A DNA stretch of 32,000 bases from Nanopusillaceae archaeon (GCA_049974095.1 JBMFJD010000002.1:43508-75507), one strand, 5' to 3'; numbered from the stretch's first letter, positions 252 through 26,152 are shown. Numbers and translations are program-made. The notes: generated by a model not told the origin, from the sequence alone.

Positions 252-1073
252 ATGTTTGCTCATGCACAAGGAGAATTTGAAAAATCAAAATGGATAATTG
301 TAGGAATTCCATCAGAAATCGGTAGTTTATCTCATATAAAAAACTATTTAGAAGGACCTGAAGCAATTAGAGATGCTTCATATAGAATTTTTTCTCCAAT
401 ATTTGGAAAAATAAATATGGAAGAAATATATGATTATGGAGATATAGATTTAGAAGATATAAAAGATTTAAGTAAAGTTTATGAGAAAATATATAATGAA
501 GTAAAGAAAATATATAGGAAAGATAAAAAATATATTTTTTTAGGAGGAGATCATTCAATTACATATCCAATATTAAAAATAATAAAAGAAAATTGGGAAG
601 ATTTTTATTTATTATATTTTGATGCTCATCCAGATATCCATCCAGATCCATATCCAAATTATCAAAGTTTTATTTATCATTTAATTAAAGAAGGATATTT
701 GGATCCAAAGAAAATAATATATGTAGGAATATCAAATTTATCATTTGAAGAAAGAAATATAATTGAAGAATGGAAAATAAAATATTATAATCCATTAAAT
801 ACTTGGGATAATATAAAAGAAATATCAAAAGAAATATCTGAAATTTTATATAATAAAAATGTTTATATTTCAATTGATATTGATGTATTTGAAAATGGAT
901 GTGGACATTGGTTAGAAGGTTTTGGAATAAGACCATATCATTATTTTAAAATTATTAGTGAATTAAATATTAATTTAATTGGATTTGATTTATTAGAATT
1001 ATTCTCTAATGAAGTATGTGACAATTTAGCTGCAAAAATTATAATAGAAACAATATCTATTTTTAATAAATAG
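252..1073 (+). CDS. speB: Agmatinase-like ureohydrolase (arginase/agmatinase family)
   Basis: The ORF track gives 216..1073. I prefer the ATG at 252 (MFAHAQGEF...) because a start at 216 would abut the divergent UDG start and leave no promoter space. Ureohydrolase metal-site motifs GGDHSITYP, FDAHPD and SIDIDV are present, though the region after the third motif is divergent. Agmatinase rather than arginase is inferred from pdaD in the same window. Confidence 0.72.
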   Translation: MFAHAQGEFEKSKWIIVGIPSEIGSLSHIKNYLEGPEAIRDASYRIFSPIFGKINMEEIYDYGDIDLEDIKDLSKVYEKIYNEVKKIYRKDKKYIFLGGDHSITYPILKIIKENWEDFYLLYFDAHPDIHPDPYPNYQSFIYHLIKEGYLDPKKIIYVGISNLSFEERNIIEEWKIKYYNPLNTWDNIKEISKEISEILYNKNVYISIDIDVFENGCGHWLEGFGIRPYHYFKIISELNINLIGFDLLELFSNEVCDNLAAKIIIETISIFNK

Positions 1074-2106
1074 TATTTCCATATGTAATATGTAAACATA
1101 ATATAGATAGACCAAGAATTCCAAATATTAATAAATTAATTGTAAAAATTTGAATGGAGAGAATTATATTTGTTGTATAATAAAAGAAAATAAAATTAAG
1201 AAAAGAAATAAATAAAATAAATATACCCGAAATTATACCCAGATTTATTTTATTTTTATCTGGAAAATTATGATATAGATAAGAATGGATAGCAATAAAA
1301 AATAAGAAAATAAAGAAATTAATATTTTGGAGTAAATATATTATTGAATTTTTTATAATAAATAAAAGTACAGTAAAAAATATATATAAAATAAGAAATA
1401 AAAATGGAAAATACATTGTAAAATTCTCTTTTTTATTTTCAAATACTTCTTTAATTATAATTATTATAGGAATTTCTAAAAAAGAGAATAATCCTGCTAT
1501 CATAATAAAAAATATATTAATAGAGAAGATAGATAAAATAAATTGGAGAGAAATTAAGAAAAAAATTAATAGAAAAATATAATCTTTATATTTTTCAATA
1601 GAATTTAATTTATATAAATAATAAATTTTCTTATCATTTAAATTAAGCAAAAAGATTAATATAGATAATAAAAATAAGGAAAAAAGATTGATATATTTTA
1701 AATAAAAAATAATTGTTGAATAAAAATAGATTATGAATAAAAAAATTATCTGTTTTCTATTTATAGATAGTTTATTTTCTCCAAAGAAATTTCCAATAAA
1801 ATAAAATAAAAGAAAAAATGATAGAACATAGGAAAAATATTTAAATAATATATTATTAAAATTTAGAAAAAATAATTGGATTATTATTATAATGTATGAG
1901 ATTTTTATCATATTTATTTTAGTATAATTAATAAAAAAGTATAAAATAATAGAATAAAATATAAAGAAAACTAAATAAAAATAAAAATATGGATTACTAA
2001 TATAGAATGATAAGATAAATATTGATAAAATAATATAAATTATGTATAATTCAATATTGAAATATTTATTTTTATCAATTATCCTCTCTATAAAAGATTC
2101 ATTCAT
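1063..2106 (-). CDS. Polytopic membrane protein, paralog A of an in-window pair (function unknown); last gene of the surface cluster
   Basis: 347 aa, almost entirely hydrophobic (about 10 TM spans by eye), 1 Cys. Full-length paralog of 4026..5189. Shared blocks: YTKxNxIKIxYIxIIxQ, KLNxIxKYKxYIFxLI, (K/R)ENFTxYF, IHxxLYxxxPDxxKxxLGI. The 31-nt upstream spacer has a TATA-like box at 2130..2137, 23 nt from the ATG. Confidence 0.6.
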   Translation of the reverse strand: MNESFIERIIDKNKYFNIELYIIYIILSIFILSFYISNPYFYFYLVFFIFYSIILYFFINYTKINMIKISYIIIIIQLFFLNFNNILFKYFSYVLSFFLLFYFIGNFFGENKLSINRKQIIFLFIIYFYSTIIFYLKYINLFSLFLLSILIFLLNLNDKKIYYLYKLNSIEKYKDYIFLLIFFLISLQFILSIFSINIFFIMIAGLFSFLEIPIIIIIKEVFENKKENFTMYFPFLFLILYIFFTVLLFIIKNSIIYLLQNINFFIFLFFIAIHSYLYHNFPDKNKINLGIISGIFILFISFLNFIFFYYTTNIILSIQIFTINLLIFGILGLSILCLHITYGNTIY

Positions 2107-2137: not shown

Positions 2138-2788
2138 TTATGCTATTCTTATTTCATTTTCTCCAACTCTTTCCAAATATACATTTACAGATTTATACAA
2201 TGTAATATTATTTACAAAATAACAAGGTAAAATATTACATATAACTTGTCCATTATAATTTGTTGTACATATTTCATTTCCAGAAATATTCGTTGGAAAT
2301 AGAAATATAAAATATTGATGAGCAAATGTTTGATTTTCTAAACAAAAAATATATACAAAATAATAGAAATCTGAATAGAAGTTTTTGCAAATTATAATAT
2401 TAATATAATTTAATGTAAAATTTATAGATATGGGATAAGATATTTTTTCACAATTTCCGATAAAATTTAATATTCCAAAAGAATAGTTTCCAACATATGC
2501 TCTAAATGGATATGGAAATATTGCACATGTTGGTAAAGAATTTTGGTAAAAAATACTAAAATATTCTAGTTTATCTGTAGTTGTATAATATATAGGATAA
2601 CTTTGATATCCCAAACAATTTGGAGAAAATAGATCATATAATATATCTTGAGAATAAGAAAATGTATTTTTTTGAGCATAATTATATAGATTTATTGAAG
2701 AAAAAATACCAGTAATTATTATTATTCCGACTAAAAATAATACAATTAATATTGTTATAAATGTAATAGAAAATTGATTTTTTATCAT
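2138..2788 (-). CDS. Secreted/pilin-like protein with K-N-Q N-terminus, 8 Cys
   Basis: The ORF track gives 2138..2797 (MQSMIKNQ...). The internal ATG at 2788 forms an ATGA stop/start overlap with the upstream gene (plus-strand tcat 2785..2788), as at four other junctions of this cluster. That start gives MIKNQFSITFITILIVLFLVGIIIITGIF: a basic residue, N-Q, then about 23 hydrophobic residues. There are 8 Cys and several N-x-S/T sequons. Confidence 0.6.
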   Translation of the reverse strand: MIKNQFSITFITILIVLFLVGIIIITGIFSSINLYNYAQKNTFSYSQDILYDLFSPNCLGYQSYPIYYTTTDKLEYFSIFYQNSLPTCAIFPYPFRAYVGNYSFGILNFIGNCEKISYPISINFTLNYINIIICKNFYSDFYYFVYIFCLENQTFAHQYFIFLFPTNISGNEICTTNYNGQVICNILPCYFVNNITLYKSVNVYLERVGENEIRIA

Positions 2789-4026
2789 TGATTGCAATAT
2801 GTATTTACTTGTATTTGAGATGGGCAGATTACTCCTTCAGCACAGTTTAAATTACATCCACACTGAACATTTATCCAACATACATAACATTGTGCTGGTA
2901 TGGATTCATAGTATGTAAATTCTATAGTTTTAGTATTATTTTCTTTGGAAATAATTTGAGATGTTCCACATCCTTCTTGTGAATTACAAGAATTTTGAGC
3001 ATTTGTTAAATTACAAGTTAATGGCAAAGGAGTTATTATTTCATTATTTGTTGTATTAATTTGATATTCGCATTGATATTCACATATTTTATATGCATAT
3101 TGAGTAACATTCTGATAATATACTACAGAACTAATATATATTGATTGTGGTTTTGTTTTTCCTAAAAAATATACATTATATTGCGTATCTTCGCAATATA
3201 ATCCTATAATACAGGCTATACCTTGAGGATATTGGCAAACTGTATTACATGTAGCATATGGTAAATCACATTGATATTTTGTTATACTTTCATTGCATTT
3301 TATATATGGATTATTTGACATTTGTTCAAATATTTGAGCACATGTATTTTGAGGACTTTTTCCTTCTAATGCATTTATACAATCTTGTAAGGAACATTGA
3401 GAAAAAACACCAGAAATAGAAAACGAATAAGATAAGTTATATAAATAAAATGCAGGATTGTTTGTTATATTTACAGAAATATTAAATGGAATATAAGATC
3501 CAGAGCTATTACTTGTTGTTATTATAGTTAATCCATTAGCTTGTATTGGGAAATAATAATTGTATTCTCCTGAATTAATCTCGCTACAATTTCCAATTAT
3601 TGATGCATTATAATTATTTGTAAAATTAACTGTTATACTATATGGATAATAAAAATTTAAAGCTTGTAAATTTGTTAATCCATAAGAAATAACTGATTCA
3701 TAATTTATTGTTAATAGATTATTATAATAATTTAATGCTTGTTGACATGAAGGGGGTAAATTGCATCCCTCTGGTACAGAAGCCCAAAAGGTATCATTCC
3801 ATGAAGTTACTCCAGCAAGATACGAACTACTATATCCTTGTTGAATTAAAGATGTATATAAATAACCTAAAAAATAATTTGAAAGAGTTATTGAAGATGT
3901 ATATCTTACAAAAACCTGGTTTTGTTTGTATTGAAATGAAAGAGAATAAAATGTTAATAATATTACAATTATTATTAAAGCCAAAAATAGAATTGTATAT
4001 ATAATTTCTGCCTGACTTTTCATCAT
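2785..4026 (-). CDS. Large cysteine-rich secreted protein with pilin-like N-terminus (MMKSQ + hydrophobic helix), 24 Cys
   Basis: 413 aa. N-terminus MMKSQAEIIYTILFLALIIIVILLTFYSL. I count 24 Cys, clustered in the C-terminal half (e.g. QCYVCWINVQCGCNLNCAEGVICPSQ), and many N-x-S/T sequons. The start overlaps the upstream stop (TAATG, plus-strand catta 4024..4028). I recognise no family. Confidence 0.65.
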   Translation of the reverse strand: MMKSQAEIIYTILFLALIIIVILLTFYSLSFQYKQNQVFVRYTSSITLSNYFLGYLYTSLIQQGYSSSYLAGVTSWNDTFWASVPEGCNLPPSCQQALNYYNNLLTINYESVISYGLTNLQALNFYYPYSITVNFTNNYNASIIGNCSEINSGEYNYYFPIQANGLTIITTSNSSGSYIPFNISVNITNNPAFYLYNLSYSFSISGVFSQCSLQDCINALEGKSPQNTCAQIFEQMSNNPYIKCNESITKYQCDLPYATCNTVCQYPQGIACIIGLYCEDTQYNVYFLGKTKPQSIYISSVVYYQNVTQYAYKICEYQCEYQINTTNNEIITPLPLTCNLTNAQNSCNSQEGCGTSQIISKENNTKTIEFTYYESIPAQCYVCWINVQCGCNLNCAEGVICPSQIQVNTYCNQ

Positions 4027-5189
4027 TATATTATTGAATGAAAATATAAAAATATTAATATTAAAACTGTCATCACAATACCATGTATTATTGATAAAAT
4101 TAGACTAATATTTGGAATATAAAATAGCGGTACAATAAAACTATCCATATTTGGAGGAATACCAAATATTGCAGATTCTAATAATTCTCCTAAAACTAAT
4201 TGAATAAGAAATATTATACCTATTGTTATTCCTAAAGATTTTTTTAAAGGATCCGGATATTTTTTATATAAACCATAATGAATTCCTGAAAAAAACATAA
4301 ATAAAGAAATTAAAATTCTAGTATGAAAGAAAAATGAATAATAATCTTGAAATAGAAAATAAAACTCTCCAAAAATAATTATTGAAGATAATAAAATAAG
4401 TAAGAAATATATTGTAAAATTTTCTCTTTTATTTTTTATTTTTCTATATATTAGATAGAATATGATGAATTCAAATATAGAAATAAATACTAAAGAAAAA
4501 TCGAGATAGAATTTCCAGTTATTAGAAATTAAAAATATGTGTAAATAATAAAGAGATAAAATAATTTGAATTAATATTATAAAATAGATTAACATGAATA
4601 TGTATTTTTTATATTTATCTATTTCATTTAATTTTATTATACTTAATTCATTTTTATCAATTGCATCTGTATAAAATAAAAGAGGAATTATTAAAAGAAA
4701 AGAAATAAAATAAATTAAAGAAAATAGATAGATATGAGACATTGAGAAATTATATATGTAAGCAATATATCTTGGTATTTTAACATCGATATCTCCATAA
4801 ATCATTTGATAGATTGTTTCAAGAAAATAAACAAAAAAATAATAAATTATTGACGATATATATAATATCAATGATCTTTTTGAGAAATTAAATCTCTTTT
4901 CTACGGAATAATATCCTAAAAGAAAATAGAATATATAAAAATATATATAATTTGTAAATAAGCCTCCTGAAAAATCTTTAAAATAAAATAAACTAAAAAT
5001 CTGGAAAATTATTAAGATATATATTATCTTTATTGTATTACTTTTAGTATACTTTAATAAGAAAAATAAAATAAACAAATATATAGAGCCAAACAAAATA
5101 ATATAATAGTTGAAACTTGATAATATAGAAAATAATAAAAATAAAAGCAAAAATATTGAAAAAAGAACTTTATTTATATTTTTTACCAT
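4026..5189 (-). CDS. Polytopic membrane protein, paralog B of the in-window pair (function unknown)
   Basis: 387 aa, hydrophobic throughout, no Cys. Aligns end to end with 1063..2106 (blocks listed there). Carries an extra roughly 40-aa segment containing YGDIDVKIP that paralog A lacks. Its start overlaps the upstream gene by 7 nt (5183..5189). Confidence 0.6.
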   Translation of the reverse strand: MVKNINKVLFSIFLLLFLLFSILSSFNYYIILFGSIYLFILFFLLKYTKSNTIKIIYILIIFQIFSLFYFKDFSGGLFTNYIYFYIFYFLLGYYSVEKRFNFSKRSLILYISSIIYYFFVYFLETIYQMIYGDIDVKIPRYIAYIYNFSMSHIYLFSLIYFISFLLIIPLLFYTDAIDKNELSIIKLNEIDKYKKYIFMLIYFIILIQIILSLYYLHIFLISNNWKFYLDFSLVFISIFEFIIFYLIYRKIKNKRENFTIYFLLILLSSIIIFGEFYFLFQDYYSFFFHTRILISLFMFFSGIHYGLYKKYPDPLKKSLGITIGIIFLIQLVLGELLESAIFGIPPNMDSFIVPLFYIPNISLILSIIHGIVMTVLILIFLYFHSII

Positions 5190-6727
5190 ACTCTTAATAT
5201 AGCAACAAGATATCCACCAAGAAATCCTGTATCTGTTGGATAATAGAAATCAAATACATATGTATTTACTCCTGGTGGGACTGGATATCCTAAACTAATA
5301 TATTTCCCATTTTCACGAAATAAAAATGCATTTAATTCTAGTTCTTTTCCATCTTTTGTTATACAATAAACTCTAGCCATTGCTATTCCATTGCTTCCAT
5401 AATGAGGATCCCAATATGCAGCAGATATTTTTATATATGGTACATTTGGATCCCTATCATCTATAGCCCATTTTGTTATATTAAATTGATATATTCCCCA
5501 AGAATTTATATTATCTCCTATTAAATATACTAAGGGACATTGTTTTCCAACAATAGTTCCATTTATATTTTCTACATTATCGTATACTCCAGTGGGACAT
5601 GTTACATTACTGTAATTACAATCCGGATCTGCTGCTAAAAATATATAATCTGGTTGTCCTGTTTTGTTTACAAAAGCAATATATAATCTAATTACCTCAT
5701 GCCATGGATAGTCTATAAATAACTGTTGACAATCCGATGGTATATAAACTTTTCCTGTATAAAAAGAACCTACAATAACATATTTATTGTAAACATCATT
5801 AAAACTTATTAATCCTAAATAATATGCTAGTAAATTAATATTTGTTGCAGTTTTATATGTTGGAGGATTTACATAATAGTGTCCTGTATTTTCATTTACG
5901 CATCCATAATTATTGCATCCTTGGAAAAAATAAGGTAAGTTACTACTTGGAGAAACAGTTACCATGGATCCTTCATCTAAATCTTGAAACAGAGGCCATT
6001 CACCATTTGGACAGAATACAGAAGCCGGTGTAAAATTTTCTTGAGGAAATATTTTAGAAAGAGGTTCACATATATCTTTTTGTACTGAAGAATATGTACA
6101 AGTAGCAGGAGAATATAAACCATTTAATCCCCAATCAGGACATGAAAATTGCTGATGAAAAGGAGCAGTGGCATTTACCCATCCAGCTCCAGTTAAATTT
6201 AATATATTTCCATTTGGTGCTATAACAGTTTCTTGATAATTACTTACATAAAAATACGTATAATTCCATTCATACCATTTAAATTCATTATTATCATTTG
6301 GAGGATTTATTTGACAACTATCCCAATCTCCTAAATTTCCTACAAATATAAACATATGAACAATCCATCCTGTTACCGGTGGTACAAAATATACTGTTAA
6401 GTTCCATCTATTTCCATAAATACTCTCAAAATATTGTATAATATCTTGTGATATATTTGTGCAGATATTTTGATTTATACAATATGTATCATTTCCTGAT
6501 GTACTCCAATATGATAATAAGAATGCATAGGATAAATTAACTATAGGATCATTTATATAAGGTAATAAAATTACACTATTTTGTATTGTTGAAGAATATT
6601 GCTCTATTGATGTTATATTTTGCTTTTTTATTGAATAATTATAAGAAATTAAAAAGTATAGAATTAAAGATAAAATTATTATTGCAGAAATAATTATATA
6701 AAAAATAAAATTTATTTGATTTCTCAT
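5183..6727 (-). CDS. Large secreted protein with pilin-like N-terminus (MRNQ + hydrophobic helix), 14 Cys
   Basis: 514 aa. N-terminus MRNQINFIFYIIISAIIILSLILYFLISY. The first codons share an 18-nt string (AATCAAATAAATTTTATT) with the 7717 gene (MKNQINFINF). 14 Cys, many sequons, Trp/Tyr-rich ectodomain. ATGA overlap with the upstream gene at 6724..6727. Confidence 0.65.
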   Translation of the reverse strand: MRNQINFIFYIIISAIIILSLILYFLISYNYSIKKQNITSIEQYSSTIQNSVILLPYINDPIVNLSYAFLLSYWSTSGNDTYCINQNICTNISQDIIQYFESIYGNRWNLTVYFVPPVTGWIVHMFIFVGNLGDWDSCQINPPNDNNEFKWYEWNYTYFYVSNYQETVIAPNGNILNLTGAGWVNATAPFHQQFSCPDWGLNGLYSPATCTYSSVQKDICEPLSKIFPQENFTPASVFCPNGEWPLFQDLDEGSMVTVSPSSNLPYFFQGCNNYGCVNENTGHYYVNPPTYKTATNINLLAYYLGLISFNDVYNKYVIVGSFYTGKVYIPSDCQQLFIDYPWHEVIRLYIAFVNKTGQPDYIFLAADPDCNYSNVTCPTGVYDNVENINGTIVGKQCPLVYLIGDNINSWGIYQFNITKWAIDDRDPNVPYIKISAAYWDPHYGSNGIAMARVYCITKDGKELELNAFLFRENGKYISLGYPVPPGVNTYVFDFYYPTDTGFLGGYLVAILRVW

Positions 6728-7251
6728 TTTAGTATGTATGTTATTAATTCTATTGCTACTATAGAAATTCCAATTATTAAATAATTGCTATAATTATTTT
6801 CATATAATTTTTGCATATTTTTATAATTTGTTAAATTTATTGTTGGAGGAATTGTTAGTGTAATATTAATAACATTTGTAGTATAATTTGCTGAAAATAT
6901 AATATCGTTTAATGCATTTATAGGTATTAAACTATATGGAGAAACAGCAGTTCCATTTGGGTATACACAATAATAAGTTTGGTAAGTAACATTGTGGTAG
7001 ATAGTTAAATTTAGAAAATATGTAGATAAATTAAAATGAGAACAAAAATTATATTGAACAGGAACATTTCCATTATAATAATCTATCGCATTAAATATTT
7101 TTCCATCTACAATACAATATTGTCCAGAAGAATTAACAAAATATGTTCCTCCACTATATTCACAAAATACTGCAAAAGGATTTCTTATTGAATAAATTTT
7201 ACTAAAAAATATTAGTAATAATAAAAATAAAAAATACTTTATTTTTTTCAT
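6724..7251 (-). CDS. DUF333-like 4-Cys surface protein with Sec-type signal peptide and C-terminal TM anchor
   Basis: 175 aa. N-terminus MKKIKYFLFLLLLIFFSKIYS looks like a Sec-type signal peptide. It is followed by IRNPFAVFCEYSGGTYFVNSSGQYCIVDGKIFNAIDYYNG, which matches from memory the DUF333/COG3042 pattern NPAxxYCxxxGGxxxxxxxGxxCxxxDGxxxxxWxxYxG. The C-terminus LIIGISIVAIELITYILK is a TM anchor. Paralog of 7714..8655. Confidence 0.6.
   Translation of the reverse strand: MKKIKYFLFLLLLIFFSKIYSIRNPFAVFCEYSGGTYFVNSSGQYCIVDGKIFNAIDYYNGNVPVQYNFCSHFNLSTYFLNLTIYHNVTYQTYYCVYPNGTAVSPYSLIPINALNDIIFSANYTTNVINITLTIPPTINLTNYKNMQKLYENNYSNYLIIGISIVAIELITYILK
7088..7154. repeat. 67-bp perfect repeat, copy 1 (inside the DUF333-like gene 6724..7251)
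   Basis: Identical to 8393..8459: gcattaaatatttttccatctacaatacaatattgtccagaagaattaacaaaatatgttcctccac. Identity extends a further 15 nt upstream across a single mismatch (7087 c vs 8392 t). Wider homology spans about 7031..7154 vs about 8336..8459. Confidence 0.9.
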
Positions 7252-7285
7252 TAAATTATTTTTCTTTAAAAATATATAAACATTA

Positions 7286-7717
7286 TTAGCCGGCTCCTCC
7301 CATTATATTTTGTATAAATTGCAAAGAAGGAGTTATGTATAAATTATTTCCATATTTTAATATATAAATTTCTGATGGATAGATTAAAAAAGATACATTT
7401 TCTTCATTATTATTTATCAAATATATTGTAGAATTATAAAAAATAACAGTATAATTATTTTCTTGATAATTTATTATTAATTCAGAATTATTTGAATATA
7501 AAATAATATCTTTTGGGACAGATAATTCAATATAGTAATTTCCATAAGATGTATAAATTGTATTTGCTAAGTTCTGTAAGTTTTGTAAAAATATCGTAAA
7601 TTCTTCTCTTTGCTGATTTTTTTGTAAATTCATTGAAAAAGAAAAATATATGCCAATAGCAATTCCAACAATTATTAATATTATTCCAAAATTAATAAAA
7701 TTTATTTGATTCTTCAT
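7286..7717 (-). CDS. Small pilin-like protein (MKNQ + hydrophobic helix), no Cys
   Basis: 143 aa. N-terminus MKNQINFINFGIILIIVGIAIGIYFSF, then a beta-rich, Asn/Tyr-rich domain, ending in GGAG. ATGA overlap with the upstream gene at 7714..7717. Confidence 0.6.
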   Translation of the reverse strand: MKNQINFINFGIILIIVGIAIGIYFSFSMNLQKNQQREEFTIFLQNLQNLANTIYTSYGNYYIELSVPKDIILYSNNSELIINYQENNYTVIFYNSTIYLINNNEENVSFLIYPSEIYILKYGNNLYITPSLQFIQNIMGGAG

Positions 7718-8655
7718 TTTAGATAAAATAACAATATTATTAATCCAATTATCATAACAGAAATTGTTATTATTGCAGGTATTATAAAGTTACTATTATT
7801 CATATTGTTATTTGTTAGATTTTCTTCATTTTTTATTATTTGTTGTACTAATGTATTATTTTGTTGTGTTTGATTTAAATAAATACATTGAAACATTCCA
7901 TAACAATTTACTTCTATTTTATTTGGTGGTGGACATTGTTTTTCAAATTCTTGATATAATTCTTCTAATGAATAATTCTGCGGACATAAGTACCAAGGAC
8001 TAAATGCGTTGCTATTGCATTTTCCGCATCCAACATATTCTCTATAAAATTCTATAGTTTGATTATAAGATCCAATATATAAATTTGGAGGAATATATGG
8101 GGGATTAAAGCATGGATATGGGATATTAGAACATTGAGAAGCTTCCCAAGGAGTACTTGGGCATTGTAATATATTTGAACAATTTGATTGACCAATTTCT
8201 ATAATATTTGAATTACTATTTAGATAATTTTCAAAGATAATATATGGTGAAATTAATGTTCCATTTGGATATTCACAATAGGATTCATATAAAGTAAAGT
8301 TTGATATATTTTCTTGTTTAATTACTAATGTTAAATTAAAATGAGAACAAAAAGAATATTGAGGTGGTACAAAATTATTATAATAATCTATTGCATTAAA
8401 TATTTTTCCATCTACAATACAATATTGTCCAGAAGAATTAACAAAATATGTTCCTCCACCAATTTGGCAATATTCTTTGTATATTTGCTGAGAAAAAGCA
8501 GGAAAAAATAGAAATATTAAAAATATTAAGAAGATTTTTTTAATCATTTTAAGAATAAGTTGCTTCTTGTATTGTAACCATATACTGTGAAAAGTTTTCC
8601 CATAAAGTGTAGGCAATTCATTGTAATATGGTATATATAATAATCCATTTTTCAT
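7714..8655 (-). CDS. DUF333-like, 14-Cys surface protein with C-terminal TM anchor (probable true start at 8547)
   Basis: The ORF is 313 aa. The internal ATG at 8547 gives MIKKIFLIFLIFLFFPAFSQQ, a Sec-type signal peptide parallel to that of the paralog at 6724..7251. It is followed by YCQIGGGTYFVNSSGQYCIVDGKIFNAIDYYNNFVPPQYSFCSHFNLT and then a Pro/Cys-rich extension (NCSNILQCPSTPWEASQCSNIPYPCFNPPYIPP). C-terminal anchor: FIIPAIITISVMIIGLIILLFYLK. Confidence 0.6.
   Translation of the reverse strand: MKNGLLYIPYYNELPTLYGKTFHSIWLQYKKQLILKMIKKIFLIFLIFLFFPAFSQQIYKEYCQIGGGTYFVNSSGQYCIVDGKIFNAIDYYNNFVPPQYSFCSHFNLTLVIKQENISNFTLYESYCEYPNGTLISPYIIFENYLNSNSNIIEIGQSNCSNILQCPSTPWEASQCSNIPYPCFNPPYIPPNLYIGSYNQTIEFYREYVGCGKCNSNAFSPWYLCPQNYSLEELYQEFEKQCPPPNKIEVNCYGMFQCIYLNQTQQNNTLVQQIIKNEENLTNNNMNNSNFIIPAIITISVMIIGLIILLFYLK
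8393..8459. repeat. 67-bp perfect repeat, copy 2 (inside the DUF333-like gene 7714..8655)
   Basis: See copy 1. Encodes GGTYFVNSSGQYCIVDGKIFNA in both paralogs. Confidence 0.9.
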
Positions 8656-8672
8656 ATAATATAGATATTCCT

Positions 8673-9443
8673 CTATATTAATTCATCCTGTATAGTTTCT
8701 CTGCTATTTCCTTCATTATCCTTTGCATTAATTACTATATTATATATACCTGCATTAATAGAGTTTGGTATACTAATTGTAGATGAAATTGTACAAGATG
8801 AAAAAGTTATACAAGATGTTTGATTAAGAGAACATGCAATTCCATTTGGTGATATGCATGAAAATGATATATTATATGGAGTATTTTGAGGTAGATTTTC
8901 TTGCGCAGTTATATATATACTTGTGGATCCTCCAGATTGCAATGTTATTAGAGAATTATTTGGATATAAATAAATAATTCCTTTTATACTATAAGTTTGC
9001 TGATAGTTTAGCTCTCCTAAACTTATTATAATACTGTTTGGAGAATTTTTTTCAATTATTAAAGGTAATACTTCATAATTTTTTCCATAAAATGATGTAT
9101 AATAAATTCCCGAAGTATAATATTGGATTAAATTATTTGTAGTATTTATATAAACTAAGCATGGAAATGAATAATTATAATATGTATTATATATATAACA
9201 TGTAACAGTATTTCCATTTGAAGAAACATAATTTAAATACTTATTTACTTTAAAATTGAGATAAATAGTAGTTCCATTATTTGAATAGCATACTTGTTGA
9301 ATAGTATTAAATAAATTTTGACATTCAGATATTTCAGTATAAATTTCTTCTGTTTGATAATTTATATTAGTAAATTTAAAATATAATAATAAAGATAAGC
9401 TAAAAACAATAATACTTATTATTATCCAAAACCATTTTTCCAT
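8673..9443 (-). CDS. N-terminally anchored surface protein with C-terminal Ig-like/adhesin-like domain, 8 Cys
   Basis: 256 aa. N-terminus MEKWFWIIISIIVFSLSLLLYF. The C-terminal roughly 75 aa (…ISFSCISPNGIACSLNQTSCITFSSCTISSTISIPNSINAGIYNIVINAKDNEGNS) has the xGxYxIxIxAxDxxGNS strand pattern common in Ig-like adhesin/S-layer domains. The upstream 32-nt spacer has a TATA-like box at 9466..9473. Confidence 0.55.
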   Translation of the reverse strand: MEKWFWIIISIIVFSLSLLLYFKFTNINYQTEEIYTEISECQNLFNTIQQVCYSNNGTTIYLNFKVNKYLNYVSSNGNTVTCYIYNTYYNYSFPCLVYINTTNNLIQYYTSGIYYTSFYGKNYEVLPLIIEKNSPNSIIISLGELNYQQTYSIKGIIYLYPNNSLITLQSGGSTSIYITAQENLPQNTPYNISFSCISPNGIACSLNQTSCITFSSCTISSTISIPNSINAGIYNIVINAKDNEGNSRETIQDELI

Positions 9444-9475
9444 ATTTTATCTATAAAATATTATGATATATAAAG

Positions 9476-9883
9476 CTATCCTTGTAATTGGATATATACA
9501 TATTCTCCAGTAGAGTAAACTAATATATAATCTCCAGAATTTATTGTATAATTGCAATTTTGCATAACAACACTAGGATTAATTTGATTTACTAAATTAA
9601 TTAAATCTTGACATGTAAAAGATTTTCCTTGATACGAAATTAGATAACATAATCCATTTTCTTTTTTTTCATAACAAGAAATTATATCCAAAGCTATAGT
9701 ATCAATTGACGATACATTTGTTTCAACAATAGTTTGCGTATTATTGTATTTAGGTAATGTATGATTAATAAAAGATGTTATATTTCCTTTAAAGTAATAT
9801 ATAATTCCAATTATTGTTAAAGTAACAATAATACCTATTATTATTAAAAACGTTAAGCTTACAGGCATTTCCTGATTTTTCAT
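9476..9883 (-). CDS. Small pilin-like protein (MKNQ + hydrophobic helix), 4 Cys
   Basis: 135 aa. N-terminus MKNQEMPVSLTFLIIIGIIVTLTIIGIIYYF. 4 Cys. Size and architecture are typical of a minor pilin. Confidence 0.6.
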   Translation of the reverse strand: MKNQEMPVSLTFLIIIGIIVTLTIIGIIYYFKGNITSFINHTLPKYNNTQTIVETNVSSIDTIALDIISCYEKKENGLCYLISYQGKSFTCQDLINLVNQINPSVVMQNCNYTINSGDYILVYSTGEYVYIQLQG

Positions 9884-9912
9884 ATTTTTATATAGTCCTT
9901 ATTATTTTATAT

Positions 9913-10392
9913 TTATTGCCATAAAATGATATTGCTATTATTATATATAATAAATAAACTATTGTATGGATAAATTATTTCATCATTATTCTTTAAATGG
10001 AATTCTAAATTATTAATATTGAATGTAGAGTAATTTTCAAGATAATTTGTTATATTTGTTAAATTTAAACTAATATTTTCATCTATATAGATATCATAAC
10101 AAATATTAAATAAAGTATTTTTGTCTATATTATTATAATAGCAATTTATTATAAATCCAGAGATATCAGAGATAATTTCATCCTCAGTTTGATTTGTAAA
10201 TATAATACTTATTGCTGATGGGTAATATTTTATACATGAAGGGGAAAATCCACCCTCAGAAATTAATGTTTTGCAGTAATATAATTGAGAATTTGCAAAA
10301 AATTTTGTATATACAATATCTAATATTACAAATACCGATATTATCGCAATAATTATAATAAATGTAGTATCTATTGCTATGTCAGTTTTCAT
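9913..10392 (-). CDS. Small pilin-like protein (MKTD + hydrophobic helix), 4 Cys
   Basis: 159 aa. N-terminus MKTDIAIDTTFIIIIAIISVFVILDIVY. 4 Cys. ATGA overlap with the upstream gene at 10389..10392. Confidence 0.55.
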   Translation of the reverse strand: MKTDIAIDTTFIIIIAIISVFVILDIVYTKFFANSQLYYCKTLISEGGFSPSCIKYYPSAISIIFTNQTEDEIISDISGFIINCYYNNIDKNTLFNICYDIYIDENISLNLTNITNYLENYSTFNINNLEFHLKNNDEIIYPYNSLFIIYNNSNIILWQ

Positions 10393-10676
10393 ATATAACT
10401 AATATTACCTTCATAAATATATATTATTCTATATCCTGCGGGAATTGTTATATTATTGATTGTACAATTTTCTGTTAAATATATTTTTTCATCAATTATT
10501 TTATAATAACTTTCATTATATAATTTATATAATTGATTGCAATTTAATGTTATTACATTATTTTCACCATTTATATTTTTATTAACTTTGTAAATATATG
10601 AAAATGCAAAAATAGATGCTACAACAATTAGTATAAAACTTATTATTGCCCAATAAATATATTGTTGGTTTTTCAT
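10389..10676 (-). CDS. Very small pilin-like protein (MKNQ + hydrophobic helix), 2 Cys
   Basis: 95 aa. N-terminus MKNQQYIYWAIISFILIVVASIFAFSYIY. 2 Cys. ATGA overlap with the platform gene at 10673..10676. Confidence 0.55.
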   Translation of the reverse strand: MKNQQYIYWAIISFILIVVASIFAFSYIYKVNKNINGENNVITLNCNQLYKLYNESYYKIIDEKIYLTENCTINNITIPAGYRIIYIYEGNISYI

Positions 10677-12643
10677 AATTGTATTGTAGTTGGTAAATAT
10701 GGGCCAAATATAGTATATACTAACATTATACCCAATAATGAAAATATTACATAAAATATCGTTCCTGTTATTAAATTTCTTCCTACGTAATATGAAATCA
10801 TTGTACTATCAAATCCATATTTTATTCCTGCAGTCATAAAAGAAGTAATAGCTACATATTCTATAAAAAATATTCCTATTATTGCTTCAAAATATGTTGG
10901 AGGAATAAGGTTATAGAGATTAAATGTATTTACAATAAAATTGTATAAGCTAAATGATCCTCCAATACCCAACGATTGGCTAATCATTTGAAAAAAATAT
11001 GCAATTGCAAATAATATTGATACAATAGCATTATTAAATACTGTTACTAATGAAGAAATAAATGGAATTAGATCTCTAGATGTTATATCTAGCATATTTA
11101 CTATTTCATTCAATATTTTTCTTACATTATATCTTATATTCATAACATTTTCTAAATTATATGATATATTATATGTAATCTGAGACAAAACTTGTGGACC
11201 TTTTGGCAGAGAAAGAACTATTAATTGCATTGTTTCTCCAATTAATTTTGATGGATAATAGTTTAAAGATCCAATTTTTCTATCAAAAATTGATGTGACT
11301 AGATCATATCCCTTTCTTAAATTATATAATGTAATTTTTAGAAATCTTTCCATTACTCCAGATGACTTTATTATTTTATAGTTATCATATGTTTTTTGTA
11401 TTACAGCCTCCATTGGATATCCATCTTCTAATAATGATGCAAATTCATATGTAACAATTGGAAATTCATTTTCTATTTCTTCTATTTGATTTATTCTTTT
11501 TACTTTTTGGAAAGATACTAAATAGTAATATGAACCAATTCCTAATCCCAAACCCAAAGGTAACATTAATGTTAAAAATGAATATATTAATGCTCTATCC
11601 TGATAAACAATATTTAAATAATCACTAAGATCCCCCTGAGGTAAAAACAAGATTTTTAATGATAAAGCAATTAAATGATATATTCCTAATATTGCAATAG
11701 ATCCCAATATAATTGAAACAATTATTGCTGGAATTTCTTTATTTCCAATTTTAAATTTTCCAGGAGAAGGTAAATCTTTAGATAAAGATAAATCTGGAAC
11801 TGAAAATGCAAATGGATTTCTAGATAATAGATTTTGTATAAATAAGAATGTTATTACAGGTAAAATAATTATATAACTAAATGCAATAAAATAAAAACTT
11901 ACAGTATTTAATAGAAATATCGATAATATTGGTAATATTATTAAACTAATTAGCGGCATCATAACTAAAAAAGAAACAATAACTGTAGCAGGTTGCTTTA
12001 ATTCATCTACATAATTTTGAGATCTTTCTAATGATTTCTTTAATATCCAATTTAATATTCTATCTACTAATTTGTTTATTTCTTCAACAGAGTTCTTATA
12101 TTTTATATTTATTAAATGAGTCATTGCATATACAAAATCTGGACTCAAGTAAAACCATCTATATTGATAAAATTGAATTGCAGACTCTATATCTTTAAAC
12201 CTATTTGTTTCTAAATCATAAATTAGTTTTTTGAAATCATCGGCAATTACACCTTTCATATAATATGCAACATATTGTATTGCGCCTTCTAAATTTGGAT
12301 TCCTTTTAATATATAAGGATAAATATAAAATTATCCAAACAATTTCAGAAGTTGCTTGTATTTTTACAATTTGTGTATATAATATTGGATAGTACATTAA
12401 GTATAAATCCAGTATTATTAATGATATTAATAAAGAAAATGCTAGTTGAAAAGAAACAAAGCTTAATATAAAAAATATTACTATAGAAAATATTAATAAT
12501 GTTATTGTGGAGGAAAATATTTTGTTAGGATCTGTATTTAATTTATTTAACCATAAATGAAATGCATATAATTTATATATTGGTTGAGGGGCTCTTAATT
12601 TAATTAATGCAAAATTATTATAAAAATTTTCAAAAAAAGACAT
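10673..12643 (-). CDS. FlaJ/TadC/PilC-like type IV filament membrane platform protein (two T2SSF-like repeats)
   Basis: 656 aa, no Cys. Architecture is TM block, helical cytoplasmic domain (AIQYVAYYMKGVIADDFKKLIYDL…AIQFYQ…), TM block, second cytoplasmic domain (EFPIVTYEFASLLEDGYPMEAVIQK…ITLYNLRKGYDLVTSIF), TM block. This is the duplicated T2SSF arrangement of archaeal FlaJ/TadC proteins. The assignment rests on pattern recognition only; no HMM search was possible. Confidence 0.5.
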   Translation of the reverse strand: MSFFENFYNNFALIKLRAPQPIYKLYAFHLWLNKLNTDPNKIFSSTITLLIFSIVIFFILSFVSFQLAFSLLISLIILDLYLMYYPILYTQIVKIQATSEIVWIILYLSLYIKRNPNLEGAIQYVAYYMKGVIADDFKKLIYDLETNRFKDIESAIQFYQYRWFYLSPDFVYAMTHLINIKYKNSVEEINKLVDRILNWILKKSLERSQNYVDELKQPATVIVSFLVMMPLISLIILPILSIFLLNTVSFYFIAFSYIIILPVITFLFIQNLLSRNPFAFSVPDLSLSKDLPSPGKFKIGNKEIPAIIVSIILGSIAILGIYHLIALSLKILFLPQGDLSDYLNIVYQDRALIYSFLTLMLPLGLGLGIGSYYYLVSFQKVKRINQIEEIENEFPIVTYEFASLLEDGYPMEAVIQKTYDNYKIIKSSGVMERFLKITLYNLRKGYDLVTSIFDRKIGSLNYYPSKLIGETMQLIVLSLPKGPQVLSQITYNISYNLENVMNIRYNVRKILNEIVNMLDITSRDLIPFISSLVTVFNNAIVSILFAIAYFFQMISQSLGIGGSFSLYNFIVNTFNLYNLIPPTYFEAIIGIFFIEYVAITSFMTAGIKYGFDSTMISYYVGRNLITGTIFYVIFSLLGIMLVYTIFGPYLPTTIQL

Positions 12644-12650
12644 TTTAAAT

Positions 12651-13406
12651 TTATGTTAGACCGTTTAGTTGCTGATATGGTATCTGTAGTAGGAATTCAC
12701 ATAGTGGTATTCCTAAGCTATTATTTACTATATTTAATTTTGAGCAATTTCCTGTTACATATAATGTTTGATTTATTACTTGTAAACTTAAATTACATCC
12801 ATTATTTGTATTATAATAATTTAATACTTTTAATAACGCTACAAATACCTGATCTGTAATCCATGTTGGTATCATTCCTGAACATTGTTGTGGTCCTGGA
12901 TATAATATTTGATTTTGAGAAGGTGCAGAGAAATATATATTTGCTGTTTGTGTTTGTACATTAAATGATGTTAATGGAGAGTAATTACCAAATACTAATG
13001 ATGTAGCTTTCTCTGGAGATTTTTGTAAAGTATTAATATAATATTGACATTCAATATACATACAATCTAATGGGGTTACAGGATATCCTTCATATGTACA
13101 TTGATTATTCGATCCCCCATATAATTGCAAAATTACACTACAAGGTACAGAATTTGCACATAAATAATATCCTGGTTGTGGTTCTATAATACCTTGTCCT
13201 ATTGTTTCATATTTTGAGCAAAAAAATGATATACTCTGACATTCACTTATGCAATCGCTCACCGCTTGTTGTATTTCTGTATTAGATATTTTTGAAATAT
13301 TTGAAGATTGTTGCTGGAATAATTTTATTACTATTACTGCTACTACTAACATAATTAATATTACGAAAATCAATTCAACAGCCATTTCTATAGATCTCTT
13401 TTTCAT
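12651..13406 (-). CDS. Pilin-like secreted protein (MKKRS + IEMAVELIFVIL helix), 12 Cys; first gene of the cluster
   Basis: 251 aa. N-terminus MKKRSIEMAVELIFVILIMLVVAVIVIKLF has a basic leader, a small residue, then a hydrophobic helix, as in archaeal class III signal peptides. 12 Cys. TTATAAAT box at 13428..13435 (minus strand), 21 nt upstream of the ATG. Confidence 0.6.
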   Translation of the reverse strand: MKKRSIEMAVELIFVILIMLVVAVIVIKLFQQQSSNISKISNTEIQQAVSDCISECQSISFFCSKYETIGQGIIEPQPGYYLCANSVPCSVILQLYGGSNNQCTYEGYPVTPLDCMYIECQYYINTLQKSPEKATSLVFGNYSPLTSFNVQTQTANIYFSAPSQNQILYPGPQQCSGMIPTWITDQVFVALLKVLNYYNTNNGCNLSLQVINQTLYVTGNCSKLNIVNNSLGIPLCEFLLQIPYQQLNGLT

Positions 13407-15071: not shown

Positions 15072-16589
15072 GTGGACAACTCTAACGATAACTTTATTCT
15101 CTTCTATAAATATTTGGAAGAAAATGATCTTTTAGAGACGCATCTAAGGTCATTTGAATATTTTGCTGATGTAGAAATGACAAAGATTGGAAGGGAACTT
15201 GGAAAGTTTTCTCCAAGAATATTACCTTCTGGATTAAGAGATTTGCAATTTAAGATAGAAAGAATATGGTTAAGTAAGGCAGATTTTATGGAAAAAGAAG
15301 GGGTTTCTAGATTAATTTATCCAAATGAAGCAAGATTAAGAAATATAACATACTCTGGTATGGTCTATATGGAATTTTCTGTATTTGAAAATGAAACATT
15401 TAAGAGTAAATACCAAGTTGGAATAGGAAGATTACCTATTATGGTTAGATCAAAATATTGTAATACATATGGATTATCTGAGGAAGAATTAATTAGAATT
15501 GGAGAGGATCCAACAGATAGAGGCGGATATTTTATTATTAATGGAAGTGAAAGGGTAATTATATTATCTGAAGAGCTTGCTACAAATAGATTTTATGTAC
15601 AAAAAGGTAGCAGTCCTGTAATATATAGTGGATATTTGTTATCTGAATCTTTAACATTACAAAAAGCACATAGAATGGAATTAATGAAGGATGGAATCTT
15701 ATATTTAACATTTGAAAAGTATAAAAGGGTTCCATTAATTCCACTATTAAAAGCATTGGGACTAGAAAAGGATGTTGAAATTGCTCAATTAATTAATGAA
15801 GAAGATAATTTTGAAGAAACATTTATTAATTTATTAGAATTCCAAGATATACAAGATGAGGAATCTGCAATTAAATATCTTTCAGATAGATTAAAATTAA
15901 CAGGATCTCCAGAAGTAAAAAGGGAGAAATTATTAGGAATATTAGATACATCATTATTGCCATATATTGGAACCTCTCCAGAAGATAGATTATGGAAAAC
16001 ATATAGTTTGGCAAAAATGGCAAGGAAAATATTATTATTAGCACATGGAAAAATTGATGAAGATGTAAAAGATCATTTTTCAAATAAAGTTGTTAGAACT
16101 CCTGGAGAATTATTGAGAGAATGGTTCTTAATTACTTTAAGAACATTAATGAATGATGCAATGTATCAATATGAAAGATTAGTTAGAAGAGGAAAGGTTC
16201 CAACATATAACTCAATATTTAGATCAAAGATATTTACTGAAAGATTTGAATCTGCAATGGGAACAGGAAAATGGACTAGAAATAGAACAGGTATTTCACA
16301 GCAATTAGATAGAACAAATAAAATATCTGTATTATCACATTTAACAAGGGTTGTATCTTCTATATCTGAAGAAGCAGAACTATTAGAAGCAAGAATGGTT
16401 CATGGTACTCATTGGGGAAGATTAGATTTAATTGAAACTCCTGAAGGACATGAGACAGGATTAAGAAAAAATCTTACAATATTATCAAAGATAAGTTTTG
16501 AGGAAATAGATAGAAATGAATTATTAGAAAAATTAGAAAATATTGGATTAAGGCCAATAATTAAAAATATATCTTCTAAAAAAGAATAA
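15072..16589 (+). CDS. rpoB2: DNA-directed RNA polymerase subunit B'' (N-terminal half of split Rpo2), GTG start
   Basis: 505 aa with conserved Rpo2 N-terminal blocks (GGYFIINGSERVII, HWGRLDLIETPEG). The GTG start at 15072 is supported by a TTATAAAT box at 15042..15049, 22 nt upstream. Confidence 0.93.
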   Translation: MDNSNDNFILFYKYLEENDLLETHLRSFEYFADVEMTKIGRELGKFSPRILPSGLRDLQFKIERIWLSKADFMEKEGVSRLIYPNEARLRNITYSGMVYMEFSVFENETFKSKYQVGIGRLPIMVRSKYCNTYGLSEEELIRIGEDPTDRGGYFIINGSERVIILSEELATNRFYVQKGSSPVIYSGYLLSESLTLQKAHRMELMKDGILYLTFEKYKRVPLIPLLKALGLEKDVEIAQLINEEDNFEETFINLLEFQDIQDEESAIKYLSDRLKLTGSPEVKREKLLGILDTSLLPYIGTSPEDRLWKTYSLAKMARKILLLAHGKIDEDVKDHFSNKVVRTPGELLREWFLITLRTLMNDAMYQYERLVRRGKVPTYNSIFRSKIFTERFESAMGTGKWTRNRTGISQQLDRTNKISVLSHLTRVVSSISEEAELLEARMVHGTHWGRLDLIETPEGHETGLRKNLTILSKISFEEIDRNELLEKLENIGLRPIIKNISSKKE

Positions 16590-18391
16590 TGGCAACAGAA
16601 GTTTATATTGATAATATCTTTGTAGGATATATAGATGATCCTAAGGAATTTACTGAAAAATTTAAGGAAGAAAGAAGGAAGGGTATAATTCCATATTTTG
16701 TAAATATATACTATGATGAAATAAGAAACGTAATTGAAATAAATACTAGGAAGGGAAGGATATTAAGACCATTGATTGTTGTAAAAAATGGAAAACCATT
16801 ATTAACACAAGAACATATTGAAAAATTAAAGAAAGGAGAACTAAAATGGAGTGATCTAGAAAAGCAAGGAATAATTGAATGGGTAGATCCTGCAGAAGAA
16901 GAAAATTTAAAAATTGCTCTATTTCCTGAAGATATAAGAGAAGATACTACACATTTAGAGTTATCTGCTGTAGCTATATTTGGAATTGCAACATCCTTGG
17001 TTCCATTCTCAAATAAAAATCAATCTGCAAGATTAAATAGAGGTGTTAGACCACAAAGACAGGCTCATGCTACTTATACTTTAAACTTCTTTAACAGGTT
17101 TGATACAGATACTTCTATCCTATATTATCCACAACAGCCAATTGTTAGAACATTTTCTCATAAAATATTTGAAAAAGAAGATTTGATTGGACAAAATGTG
17201 ATTATTGCAGTTATGACACAAGAAGGATATAATATTGAAGATGCCATAATCATGAATAAAGGATCAATTGACAGAGGATTATTTAGATCTGTATATTTTA
17301 GATCTTATGAAACTGAAAGAATGGGATATCCTGGAGGATTAAAAGATGAGATTACAGTTCCAACTCCAGATGTTGAATTATATAGAGGAAGGGATAAATA
17401 TATAAATTTGGAAGAAGATGGTGTTATTGCTGTTGAATCATTTGTTCAATCTGAAGAAGTTCTTGTTGGAAAAGTTTCTCCTCCAAGATTTATTGGATTA
17501 ACATCTGAAAGTATTGCTACAGGATTAAGAAAAAAGGATTCTTCTTTAACAACTGGAGGTGGGGAAGAAGGATGGGTAGATGCAGTTATGTTAACAGAAT
17601 CTTCTGATGGAAATCTATTAATAAAAGTAAGATTAAGAGATTTAAGAATACCAGAATTGGGAGATAAATTTACTGTTAGACATGGACAAAAGGGTGTTTT
17701 GGGAATGATTGTTGAAGAATCTGATATGCCATGGACATCTTCAGGTTTAAAACCAGATATTATATTTTCTCCTGCAAGTATTCCATCTAGAGAGACTGTT
17801 GGTTTATTATTAGAATTACTTGGAGGAAAAGTTGGAAGTTTAAATGGTAGATATGTTGATGGTACTCCTTGGTATGGAGAAAAAGAAGAAGATTTGAGGA
17901 AAGAATTATTATCTTTAGGATTTAGAGAAGATGGAACAGAAACAATGTATAATCCTTTAACTGGAGATGAATTTAAAGCTAAAATATATATTGGAAGTAT
18001 ATATTATCTAAGGTTAAGACATATGGCAAAGAATAAATTACAAGCAAGAGCTACAGGTCCAGTTACATTATTAACAAGACAGCCAACTGAGGGTAAATCA
18101 AAGAAAGGCGGCTTAAGATTTAGTGAAATGGAACATGAAGTTCTTGCTGCTCATGGTGCTTCATATTTATTAAGAGAAATGTATTCATCTGATGATACTG
18201 TTATATTTGTATGTGAAAATTGTGGTTCTCTAGCTGTTGAGGATAATATAAGAAATAGAGTTTATTGTCCCGTTTGTGGTGAAACAGAAAAAATATCTAA
18301 AGTTAAAGTTTCATATGGATTTACATTATTATTAAAAGAATTAATTTCTTTGGGTATTTGGCCAAGATTAAAATTGAAGTATAAGTTTTAA
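16589..18391 (+). CDS. rpoB1: DNA-directed RNA polymerase subunit B' (C-terminal half of split Rpo2)
   Basis: 600 aa with the motifs GYNIEDAIIMNK, GDKFTVRHGQKGV, RFSEMEHEVLAAHGA and a C-terminal Zn ribbon CENCGS…CPVCG. Start overlaps the B'' stop. Confidence 0.95.
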   Translation: MATEVYIDNIFVGYIDDPKEFTEKFKEERRKGIIPYFVNIYYDEIRNVIEINTRKGRILRPLIVVKNGKPLLTQEHIEKLKKGELKWSDLEKQGIIEWVDPAEEENLKIALFPEDIREDTTHLELSAVAIFGIATSLVPFSNKNQSARLNRGVRPQRQAHATYTLNFFNRFDTDTSILYYPQQPIVRTFSHKIFEKEDLIGQNVIIAVMTQEGYNIEDAIIMNKGSIDRGLFRSVYFRSYETERMGYPGGLKDEITVPTPDVELYRGRDKYINLEEDGVIAVESFVQSEEVLVGKVSPPRFIGLTSESIATGLRKKDSSLTTGGGEEGWVDAVMLTESSDGNLLIKVRLRDLRIPELGDKFTVRHGQKGVLGMIVEESDMPWTSSGLKPDIIFSPASIPSRETVGLLLELLGGKVGSLNGRYVDGTPWYGEKEEDLRKELLSLGFREDGTETMYNPLTGDEFKAKIYIGSIYYLRLRHMAKNKLQARATGPVTLLTRQPTEGKSKKGGLRFSEMEHEVLAAHGASYLLREMYSSDDTVIFVCENCGSLAVEDNIRNRVYCPVCGETEKISKVKVSYGFTLLLKELISLGIWPRLKLKYKF

Positions 18392-26091: not shown

Positions 26092-26097
26092 AAGAAA

Positions 26098-26146: not shown

Positions 26147-26152
26147 TAAATC

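Follow-up and report, generated by a model that had tools for sequence, protein, structure and literature searches.

Recurrent M-[KR]-x-Q N-termini point to type IV pilin-like proteins in a lineage-specific operon of Nanopusillaceae and Nanobdellales

How do secreted proteins that begin with little more than M-[KR]-x-Q ahead of a long hydrophobic helix relate to the class III signal peptides of archaeal pilins, and is so short a leader removed? The question is raised by a gene cluster on the minus strand of a Nanopusillaceae archaeon contig (GCA_049974095.1, JBMFJD010000002.1:43508-75507), whose whole analysed stretch of 32,000 nucleotides (nt) we call the window. Protein sequences from the window match those of a Nanopusillaceae archaeon metagenome assembly (ACP5GJ_01000) with 100% identity. 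The initial annotation had proposed that an M-[KR]-[NS]-Q start shared by six of the cluster's proteins is a non-canonical, ultra-short class III signal. All of the starts it listed were found on the minus strand (MKNQ at 7717, 9883 and 10676; MRNQ at 6727; MMKSQ at 4026; MIKNQ at 2788; MKTD-IAID at 10392; MKKRS-IEMAVE at 13406), and each is followed directly by a strongly hydrophobic stretch (Kyte-Doolittle mean of 2.0-2.7 over residues 5-25). The cluster is a translationally coupled operon predicted to encode a membrane platform for pilus assembly along with some ten secreted proteins (Table 1). As argued below, the M-[KR]-x-Q N-termini are very probably type IV pilin-like modules, of the class III type, in a diverged type-IV-filament system.

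The motif is concentrated in the cluster. Six of the 13 cluster genes, and none of the 22 other genes in the window with which we compared them, encode an M-[KR]-[NS]-Q start (one or two extra residues being allowed after the methionine) followed by 20-25 hydrophobic residues. At the amino acid composition of the window, [KR][NS]Q would occupy positions 2-4 with a probability of 4.4e-4 per protein, and the binomial probability comes to 2.6e-11 if only the four strict cases are counted and to 9e-15 if three offsets are allowed and all six are included. Composition-based values of this order (1e-11 to 1e-14) rule out the AT-driven Lys/Asn bias that had been considered as a possible cause, in a window with a guanine-plus-cytosine (GC) content of about 23%. 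The MKNQ and MRNQ starts have no earlier in-frame start codon upstream; the start used is thus the first one after the preceding stop, which excludes longer leaders. Leaders in the window are therefore 3-4 residues long, and would reach 5 only if the alternative TTG at 2797 served the 2788 gene. We favor the ATG at 2788 because it overlaps the upstream gene in an ATGA and because the orthologues start MKNQ or MKEQ. In layout the proteins resemble class III substrates, with a charged n-region of 3-5 residues directly before the hydrophobic run, where an H-domain of about 20 residues is expected.

The same N-termini could in principle be ordinary signal anchors, or general secretory (Sec) signals cut by signal peptidase I, and the motif a by-product of AT-rich codons and ATGA-coupled starts. 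An ATGA overlap does fix A as the first base of the second codon, which favors K, R or N, and none of our searches retrieved a pilin family hidden Markov model (HMM) or fold. However, the overlaps do not account for a Q at position 4, and a chance of about 4e-4 per gene is hard to square with the motif in 6 of 13 cluster genes. Further, the hydrophobic run is far longer than in the Sec-type signals of the cluster (e.g., MKKIKYFLFLLLLIFFSKIYS/IRNP, the slash here and below marking the cut), the operon includes a probable T2SSF-family platform, and relatives carry class III sites in register with the motif. We thus consider this explanation very improbable.

The register and the determinants of the motif became apparent when we compared orthologue N-termini over nine related genomes across which the operon is syntenic, including those of Nanobdellales archaeon YN1 and Nanobsidianus stetteri Nst1 (families in Table 1). 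At -2, every member of Families A-D and F-I has K or R, and in six paralogous families Q is all but invariant amid varying neighbors. For example, the 23 homologues in Family D carry leaders as different as MAIKS, MAMRT, MAMRI and MKN, each followed by an invariant Q-E, and M1, Q4, I5 and N6 are invariant in the seven orthologues of Family G. Canonical class III sites appear at the aligned position in some orthologues (MKG/E, MKRS/D, MAMRS/I and, in locus L004, MRA/Q), and because they align there, the register is fixed with K/R at -2 and Q (or D/E) at +1. This is the register first proposed for the motif, and it is upheld by the canonical [KR][G/A/S] sites of both orthologues and distant loci. 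What did not survive the comparison is the role given to [NS] as a determinant, since the residue between K/R and Q is nearly free and ranges over N, S, T, A, G, V, L, I, E and Y. The [NS] pair is only a single-genome snapshot of a position centered on AAT and its one-step mutational neighbors. Family A is distinct in retaining only G, A or S at -1, and it does so via at least three codon changes.

One way to reconcile Family A with the others is a mixed state, in which a conventional A24-type peptidase cuts only the members with G, A or S (perhaps also N or T) at -1 and those with L, I, Y, E or V persist as uncleaved, non-filament accessories. The small residues of Family A and of many orthologues are as expected from such a division, and, at a genomic GC content of 23%, one transition (AGT to AAT) is all that separates N from S. 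Yet the -1 residue switches inside single orthologous families with the rest of the N-terminus unchanged (S/I in Family D, N/E in Family I, N/Y in Family F, and N, S or G versus L in Family B), which argues that its identity is without functional consequence. A mixed state is therefore improbable in our judgment.

The assignment of the cluster to a type-IV-filament system draws on its membrane platform. The 656-amino acid (aa) platform protein has no Pfam match of its own and its membership in PF00482 (T2SSF) rests on transitive homology: its relatives share 24-28% identity with it (E values of 1e-39 to 1e-57), and 6 of the 16 aligned homologues carry PF00482 (best E, 2.6e-10). The homology shows a two-halves pattern, and the best match of the family profile in the PDB is to the cytoplasmic domain of GspF, with a weak E of 0.07. 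In three distant DPANN genomes (loci L013, L014 and L015), the platform homologue lies directly after a T2SSE ATPase (PF00437) of about 750 aa and is followed by small proteins with canonical class III leaders of 3-6 residues (MNNKKG/Q, MNKKG/F, MVGKKG/L, MRKG/L, MKG/G, MSKG/V, MKSRNG/M and MNRRA/E). Since the PF00482-bearing relatives adjoin T2SSE ATPases and precede proteins with class III leaders, we regard the 656-aa protein as a probable TadC/PilC/FlaJ-type platform. A profile of Family A matches, in register, the KKG/Q pilin candidate of one of these loci (E of 7e-4 in a small database), and a Peptidase_A24 gene is located 9 kb from the platform locus in L013. The ancestral system appears to have used canonical class III signals with very short leaders. 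Together, the platform homology and the canonical sites in register support the class III-type, pilin-like reading of the motif.

The cluster's secreted proteins are also extracellular in predicted character. Its non-polytopic proteins contain 3.2 N-x-S/T sequons per 100 aa compared to 0.5 in the rest of the window (about sixfold), and their Cys content is 3.6% versus 0.3% elsewhere in the window (about twelvefold), with up to 24 Cys in one protein. This enrichment in sequons and Cys argues for an extracellular location.

Filament assembly, cleavage, its position and the identity of the peptidase we infer as follows. Subunits and accessory proteins would insert N-in/C-out via the Sec pathway, leaving the Lys or Arg on the cytoplasmic face and the heavily glycosylated, disulfide-rich heads facing outward. 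The M-(x)-K/R-x tract of three to five residues would then act as a minimal leader, homologous in position to those of related DPANN systems (MKG, MRKG and KKG), with Q as the +1 residue, as in EppA-type (DUF361) pilins. Recognition by a putative peptidase would depend on K/R at -2 and on Q at +1, whatever the -1 residue. The TadC/PilC-like platform, together with an ATPase that would be encoded elsewhere in the genome, would extract and assemble the proteins by their N-terminal helices. We judge it about as likely as not, or slightly more so, that the leader is indeed cut before Q by an enzyme tolerant at -1. Neither the short leader nor the Q at +1 is without precedent. PibD cleaves leaders as short as three residues (PMC10117864, a Jarrell/Albers review citing Ng 2009), and the archaeal enzymes require a charge at -2 in addition to the -1 residue, EppA also needing Gln at +1, as in the sites RA/QI, KG/QV and KG/QL (Pohlschroder and Esquivel, PMC4371748). 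An ultra-short leader is therefore no novelty. What is new is not a kind of signal but a -1 position free of constraint, and this in a lineage from which A24 peptidases are reported to be absent.

Several lines of evidence weigh against a processed pilin. Type IV prepilin processing appears always to require G, A or S at -1 (PMC4371748), a residue class that only Family A retains throughout; the K-x-Q families depart from it, most clearly where L, I, Y, E or V is found. Family E has lost the leader altogether in eight of the nine genomes (its ATG in the window is preceded, at a distance of two codons, by a TAA stop, while L004 has an orthologue with an MRNQVEKFLW start), so the leader is not essential, at least for this family. 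Nor is an ATPase gene encoded in the Nanopusillaceae locus. Makarova et al. (2016) found no A24 peptidase in two nanoarchaeal genomes (PMC4858521), and Nst1, which is named elsewhere in that paper and carries the present cluster, appears to be one of the two. Our own search (phmmer, with a DPANN A24 fragment against all open reading frames, ORFs) found no A24-like ORF in about 200 kb of Nanopusillaceae loci. Similarly, the supplements of the YN1 and YN4 papers annotate no nanoarchaeal prepilin peptidase and list only the host FlaK, and the published archaellum gene lists of YN1 and MJ1 include no A24 peptidase (PMC11420986; 10.1101/2023.10.27.564410). The free -1 position, the leaderless Family E and the reported absence of A24 in Nst1 call cleavage into question.

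Family and fold searches also speak on this side. Nothing significant, and no pilin or class III family among it, was found when every cluster protein and the first 50 residues of each were scanned against Pfam and NCBIfam; standard rules and HMMs do miss these proteins, as the initial annotation had anticipated for predictors built on [KR][GA]. PF04021 was hit by Family A only, at an E of 1.2 and 9.6 bits against a cut-off of 23.7, and Flp1_like matched Family D at a non-significant E of 0.026. Of the residues that define PF04021/DUF361, the Q is conserved, an S at +3 is present in Family I only and the E at +5 is absent. Two Family D clusters are named 'UPF0333 family' by the Joint Genome Institute (JGI). 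Profile searches against PDB sequences with Families A, D and G returned no match. An AlphaFold2 (AF2) model of Family D built from 23 sequences has a predicted local distance difference test (pLDDT) score of 78 for the whole chain, rising to about 90 in the head; it shows a 35-residue helix (residues 8-42) and a compact alpha/beta head. The linker between helix and head is of low confidence, however, so the model also fits a tethered protein that is not part of a filament, and a Foldseek search of the PDB gave nothing below an E of 0.98, the head matching no solved pilin fold.

These observations leave room for a vestigial, uncleaved leader: the peptidase was lost or is unused, M-K/R-x is kept only for its positive-inside charge, and the proteins, still bearing the tripeptide, are assembled as such or remain tethered to the membrane like ArlF/ArlG, with Q making a structural contact. 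We regard it as a possible though less probable account. It would explain why -1 drifts among the mutational neighbors of AAT (TAT, ATT, AGT and ACT, but also GAA, TTA and GTA), as expected once a small-residue constraint is released, and why the leaders are uniformly minimal at 3-5 residues; the leaderless Family E, the low-confidence linker in the Family D model and the A24 reports for the two nanoarchaeal genomes and for YN1 and MJ1 also agree with it. It does not explain, on the other hand, why Q is near-invariant in six families or why Family A retains G, A or S, and a Lys buried in a filament core would be unfavorable. To our knowledge, archaella need an A24 peptidase in every archaeon studied. 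N. aerobiophila swims with archaella (PMC11104419); given that Nanobdellales make working archaella, a complete absence of prepilin peptidase activity is hard to accept, and some A24-type enzyme probably exists. Thus, the canonical register, the near-invariant Gln, the small residues of Family A and the working archaella make cleavage before Q plausible.

The two orphan membrane proteins of the operon (387 and 347 aa) were considered as the missing A24 peptidase and rejected. Neither has a Pfam or NCBIfam match, and the catalytic Asp pair of A24 enzymes, the second of which lies in GxGD, is absent; with no Asp conserved in the family, these proteins are not A24 peptidases. The 387-aa family has 11 relatives among 1.84 billion representative proteins (a word-based homologue search returned three proteins), with F33, G92, F258, F300, H304, G320, G324 and H384 invariant. 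Its AF2 model, with a pLDDT of 58, is too poor for interpretation, and the rhodopsin matches that it gave in Foldseek, at template-modelling scores of about 0.2, are meaningless. The longer paralogue has two more His in neighboring helices, with a spacing reminiscent of bis-His cofactor ligation. The 347-aa protein is present in YN1 and Nanopusillus.

A further, rather unlikely extension is that Nanobdellales, as a lineage with no recognizable prepilin peptidase, assemble a type-IV-filament-like structure from subunits that either keep their leader or lose it to an enzyme outside the A24 family. In that case, the His-bearing orphans with 12 transmembrane (TM) helices would be candidate accessory or processing factors, and the operon could be the source of the 7-8 nm filament or tube that cryo-electron tomography resolves in the host-attachment organelle, or a second appendage (N. 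aerobiophila, YN1, YN4).

The history of the locus bears on how the pilin-like N-termini are distributed. The initial annotation had interpreted an 18-nt string shared by the 6727 and 7717 genes as a duplicated signal module. The string is real and non-random, with exactly two occurrences in the window (6704-6721 and 7694-7711) where 0.01 are expected. However, the identity around it extends upstream across the gene junction (CTAAAATGA...) and includes the end of the upstream gene, and the two DUF333-like genes (7714-8655 and 6724-7251) are paralogues with 65% identity over 78 aa. Paralogy of the upstream genes means that a pair of genes was duplicated here, with the string as its trace, and the idea of a free-standing signal module gives way to that of a duplicated two-gene junction. 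The module consists of a DUF333-like secreted protein plus a pilin-like gene; it is in tandem in the window and YN1 (window 5183-8655; L001 14937-18270), and single in other lineages. In Nanopusillus, L006 and L004, the Family F N-terminus and a Peptidase_C1 domain form one fusion protein, and the YN1 orthologue of Family E is a 579-aa protein with the papain-like PF00112. Pilin-like N-terminal domains thus appear to have been shuffled between heads, as judged from these gene structures. Residues 1-24 of the ORF at 7714-8655 match the C-terminus of the YN1 579-aa protein; as Family E is also truncated, the protease domain seems to have been deleted in the present metagenome-assembled genome (MAG), and the DUF333-like gene probably starts at the ATG at 8547.

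The cluster is a tight array that runs from 13406 to 1063, with five ATGA start/stop overlaps and gaps of no more than 35 nt except for one of 128 nt. It adjoins a DUF371 gene, a gene for a RimK-like ATP-grasp protein and the RNA polymerase operon. YN1 (complete genome), Nst1 (L008), four Nanopusillus MAGs and two more divergent lineages carry this array with these neighbors, and the locus is specific to Nanopusillaceae and their Nanobdellales relatives.

Table 1. Genes of the operon (all on the minus strand of the window), predicted products, the basis of each call and the N-termini seen among orthologues in the nine genomes.
Position	Strand	Predicted product	Basis or remark	N-termini among orthologues
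12651..13406	-	Family A, first operon gene: 251-aa Cys-rich pilin-like protein, MKKRS-IEMAVELIF... start	canonical short class III signal	M[KR][KR]R[G/A/S] then [ILV][DE]MA[VI][EQ]L; only small residues at -1 (codons GGT, GCT/GCA, AGT, TCT)
10673..12643	-	656-aa polytopic platform protein, TadC/PilC/FlaJ-like, two T2SSF-like halves	transitive homology	
10389..10676	-	Family B: 95-aa pilin-like protein, MKNQ start	ATGA overlap with platform gene	MKNQ, MKSQ, MKLQ, MKGE
9913..10392	-	Family C: 159-aa pilin-like protein, MKTD start (MKTD-IAID)	orthologue N-termini	MKTD, MKND, MKRSD, MKSI; D at +1, T/N/S at -1
9476..9883	-	Family D: 135-aa pilin-like protein, MKNQ start	23 homologues, AF2 model	MKNQ, MKSQ, MAIKSQ, MAMRTQ, MAMRIQ, MAMRSI
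8673..9443	-	Family E: 256 aa, hydrophobic N-terminus, leaderless (MEKWFW...)	truncated relative of Peptidase_C1 fusion	
7714..8655	-	Cys-rich DUF333-like secreted protein, Sec-type signal and C-terminal TM anchor	real start probably ATG 8547	
7286..7717	-	Family F: 143-aa pilin-like protein, MKNQ start	orthologue N-termini	MKNQ, MKKNQ, MKRYQ, MNRSQ
6724..7251	-	second DUF333-like secreted protein, C-terminal TM anchor	PF03891 E 1.3e-4, below family cut-off	
5183..6727	-	Family G: 514-aa pilin-like protein, large head, MRNQ start	orthologue conservation	MRNQ, MKSQ, MKNQ, MRAQ; N, S or A at -1
4026..5189	-	387-aa orphan membrane protein, about 12 TM helices	no family assigned	
2785..4026	-	Family H: 413-aa Cys-rich (24 Cys) pilin-like protein, MMKSQ start	orthologue N-termini	MMKSQ, MKNQ, MRNQ, MRVQ
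2138..2788	-	Family I: 216-aa pilin-like protein, MIKNQ start	ATGA overlap supports ATG 2788	MIKNQ, MKNQ, MKEQ
1063..2106	-	347-aa paralogue of the 387-aa orphan membrane protein; last gene of conserved block	30-35% identity to 4026-5189 protein	

Beyond the operon, the window contains other features of interest. Within 15072-18391 and 18391-22111, RpoB is split in two genes with a one-base overlap and the genes for RpoA' and RpoA'' overlap by 47 nt; all related loci share this arrangement. A gene for a 269-aa polytopic membrane protein with no family match (22893-23702) is inserted between those for ribosomal proteins S12 and S7, also called in a JGI copy of the contig (L016). A tyrosine integrase gene (PF00589) and a weak AbiEii-like gene (25144-26800) sit between the PvlArgDC and ribosomal L10 genes and may represent a small integrated element. 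The right end of the window is near the end of the contig.

The operon provides candidate subunits for the pilins that Makarova, Koonin and Albers (2016) could not identify in nanoarchaea, where one clade of secretion ATPases was left with no cognate pilins (PMC4858521). It also explains why rule-based predictors that demand [KR][GA(S)] miss the present proteins. The most constrained position of every known prepilin is evolutionarily free here, raising the question of whether an A24-type specificity has been relaxed, a different enzyme is used or pilin-like subunits work unprocessed. As a secreted, glycosylated, pilin-like set, the encoded proteins are a natural candidate list for the attachment organelle of MJ1, YN1 and YN4, and a link to Nanobdellales appendages and the filament of that organelle is possible (PMC11420986; PMC11104419; 10.64898/2026.06.04.730037).

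Among the closest known systems, the DPANN loci of L013 (GCA_018652475.1), L014 (Woesearchaeota, GCA_047603045.1) and L015 (JGI 3300031732) share a homologous platform gene and a downstream run of small proteins with short leaders. They differ in their -1 residue (G in nine of 10 proteins, A in the tenth), in the T2SSE ATPase directly upstream and, in L013, the nearby A24 peptidase, and in having no DUF333-like proteins, C1 peptidase or 12-TM orphan proteins. Conserved 160-200-aa proteins with an internal hydrophobic motif (...F[DE]xxLPFLLVF...) are encoded upstream in these loci (L013 4701-6565, L014 46-1888, L015 5146-6262), and the same stretches carry two cytoplasmic-looking proteins on the opposite strand; the Nanopusillaceae operon has no counterpart of any of them.

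The signal itself resembles that of the EppA-processed pilins of Methanococcus maripaludis (Epd pili; PF04021/DUF361/UPF0333), with which it shares K/R at -2 and Gln at +1 (the L004 orthologue reads MRA/QI), a long hydrophobic helix next and many paralogous minor subunits in an operon with the platform gene. In contrast, the leader is 3-5 residues long here and about 10 or more there, the -1 position extends beyond G/A, the QxSxExxxL motif is only partial, and no EppA-like 9-TM A24 peptidase is encoded in or near the locus. The substrates of PibD in Sulfolobales have similarly extreme class III leaders but retain G or A at -1, without favoring Q at +1, and PibD is an A24 enzyme. Finally, ArlF/ArlG (FlaF/FlaG) offer a model for uncleaved subunits, since in both a hydrophobic, pilin-like helix at the N-terminus is joined to a beta-rich extracellular domain. 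Neither is known to be processed by the prepilin peptidase. FlaF is a monotopic membrane protein (PMC4425475). We detected no sequence or fold similarity to them, and they are single-copy components of the archaellum, whereas the operon encodes six or more paralogues with a conserved K-x-Q.

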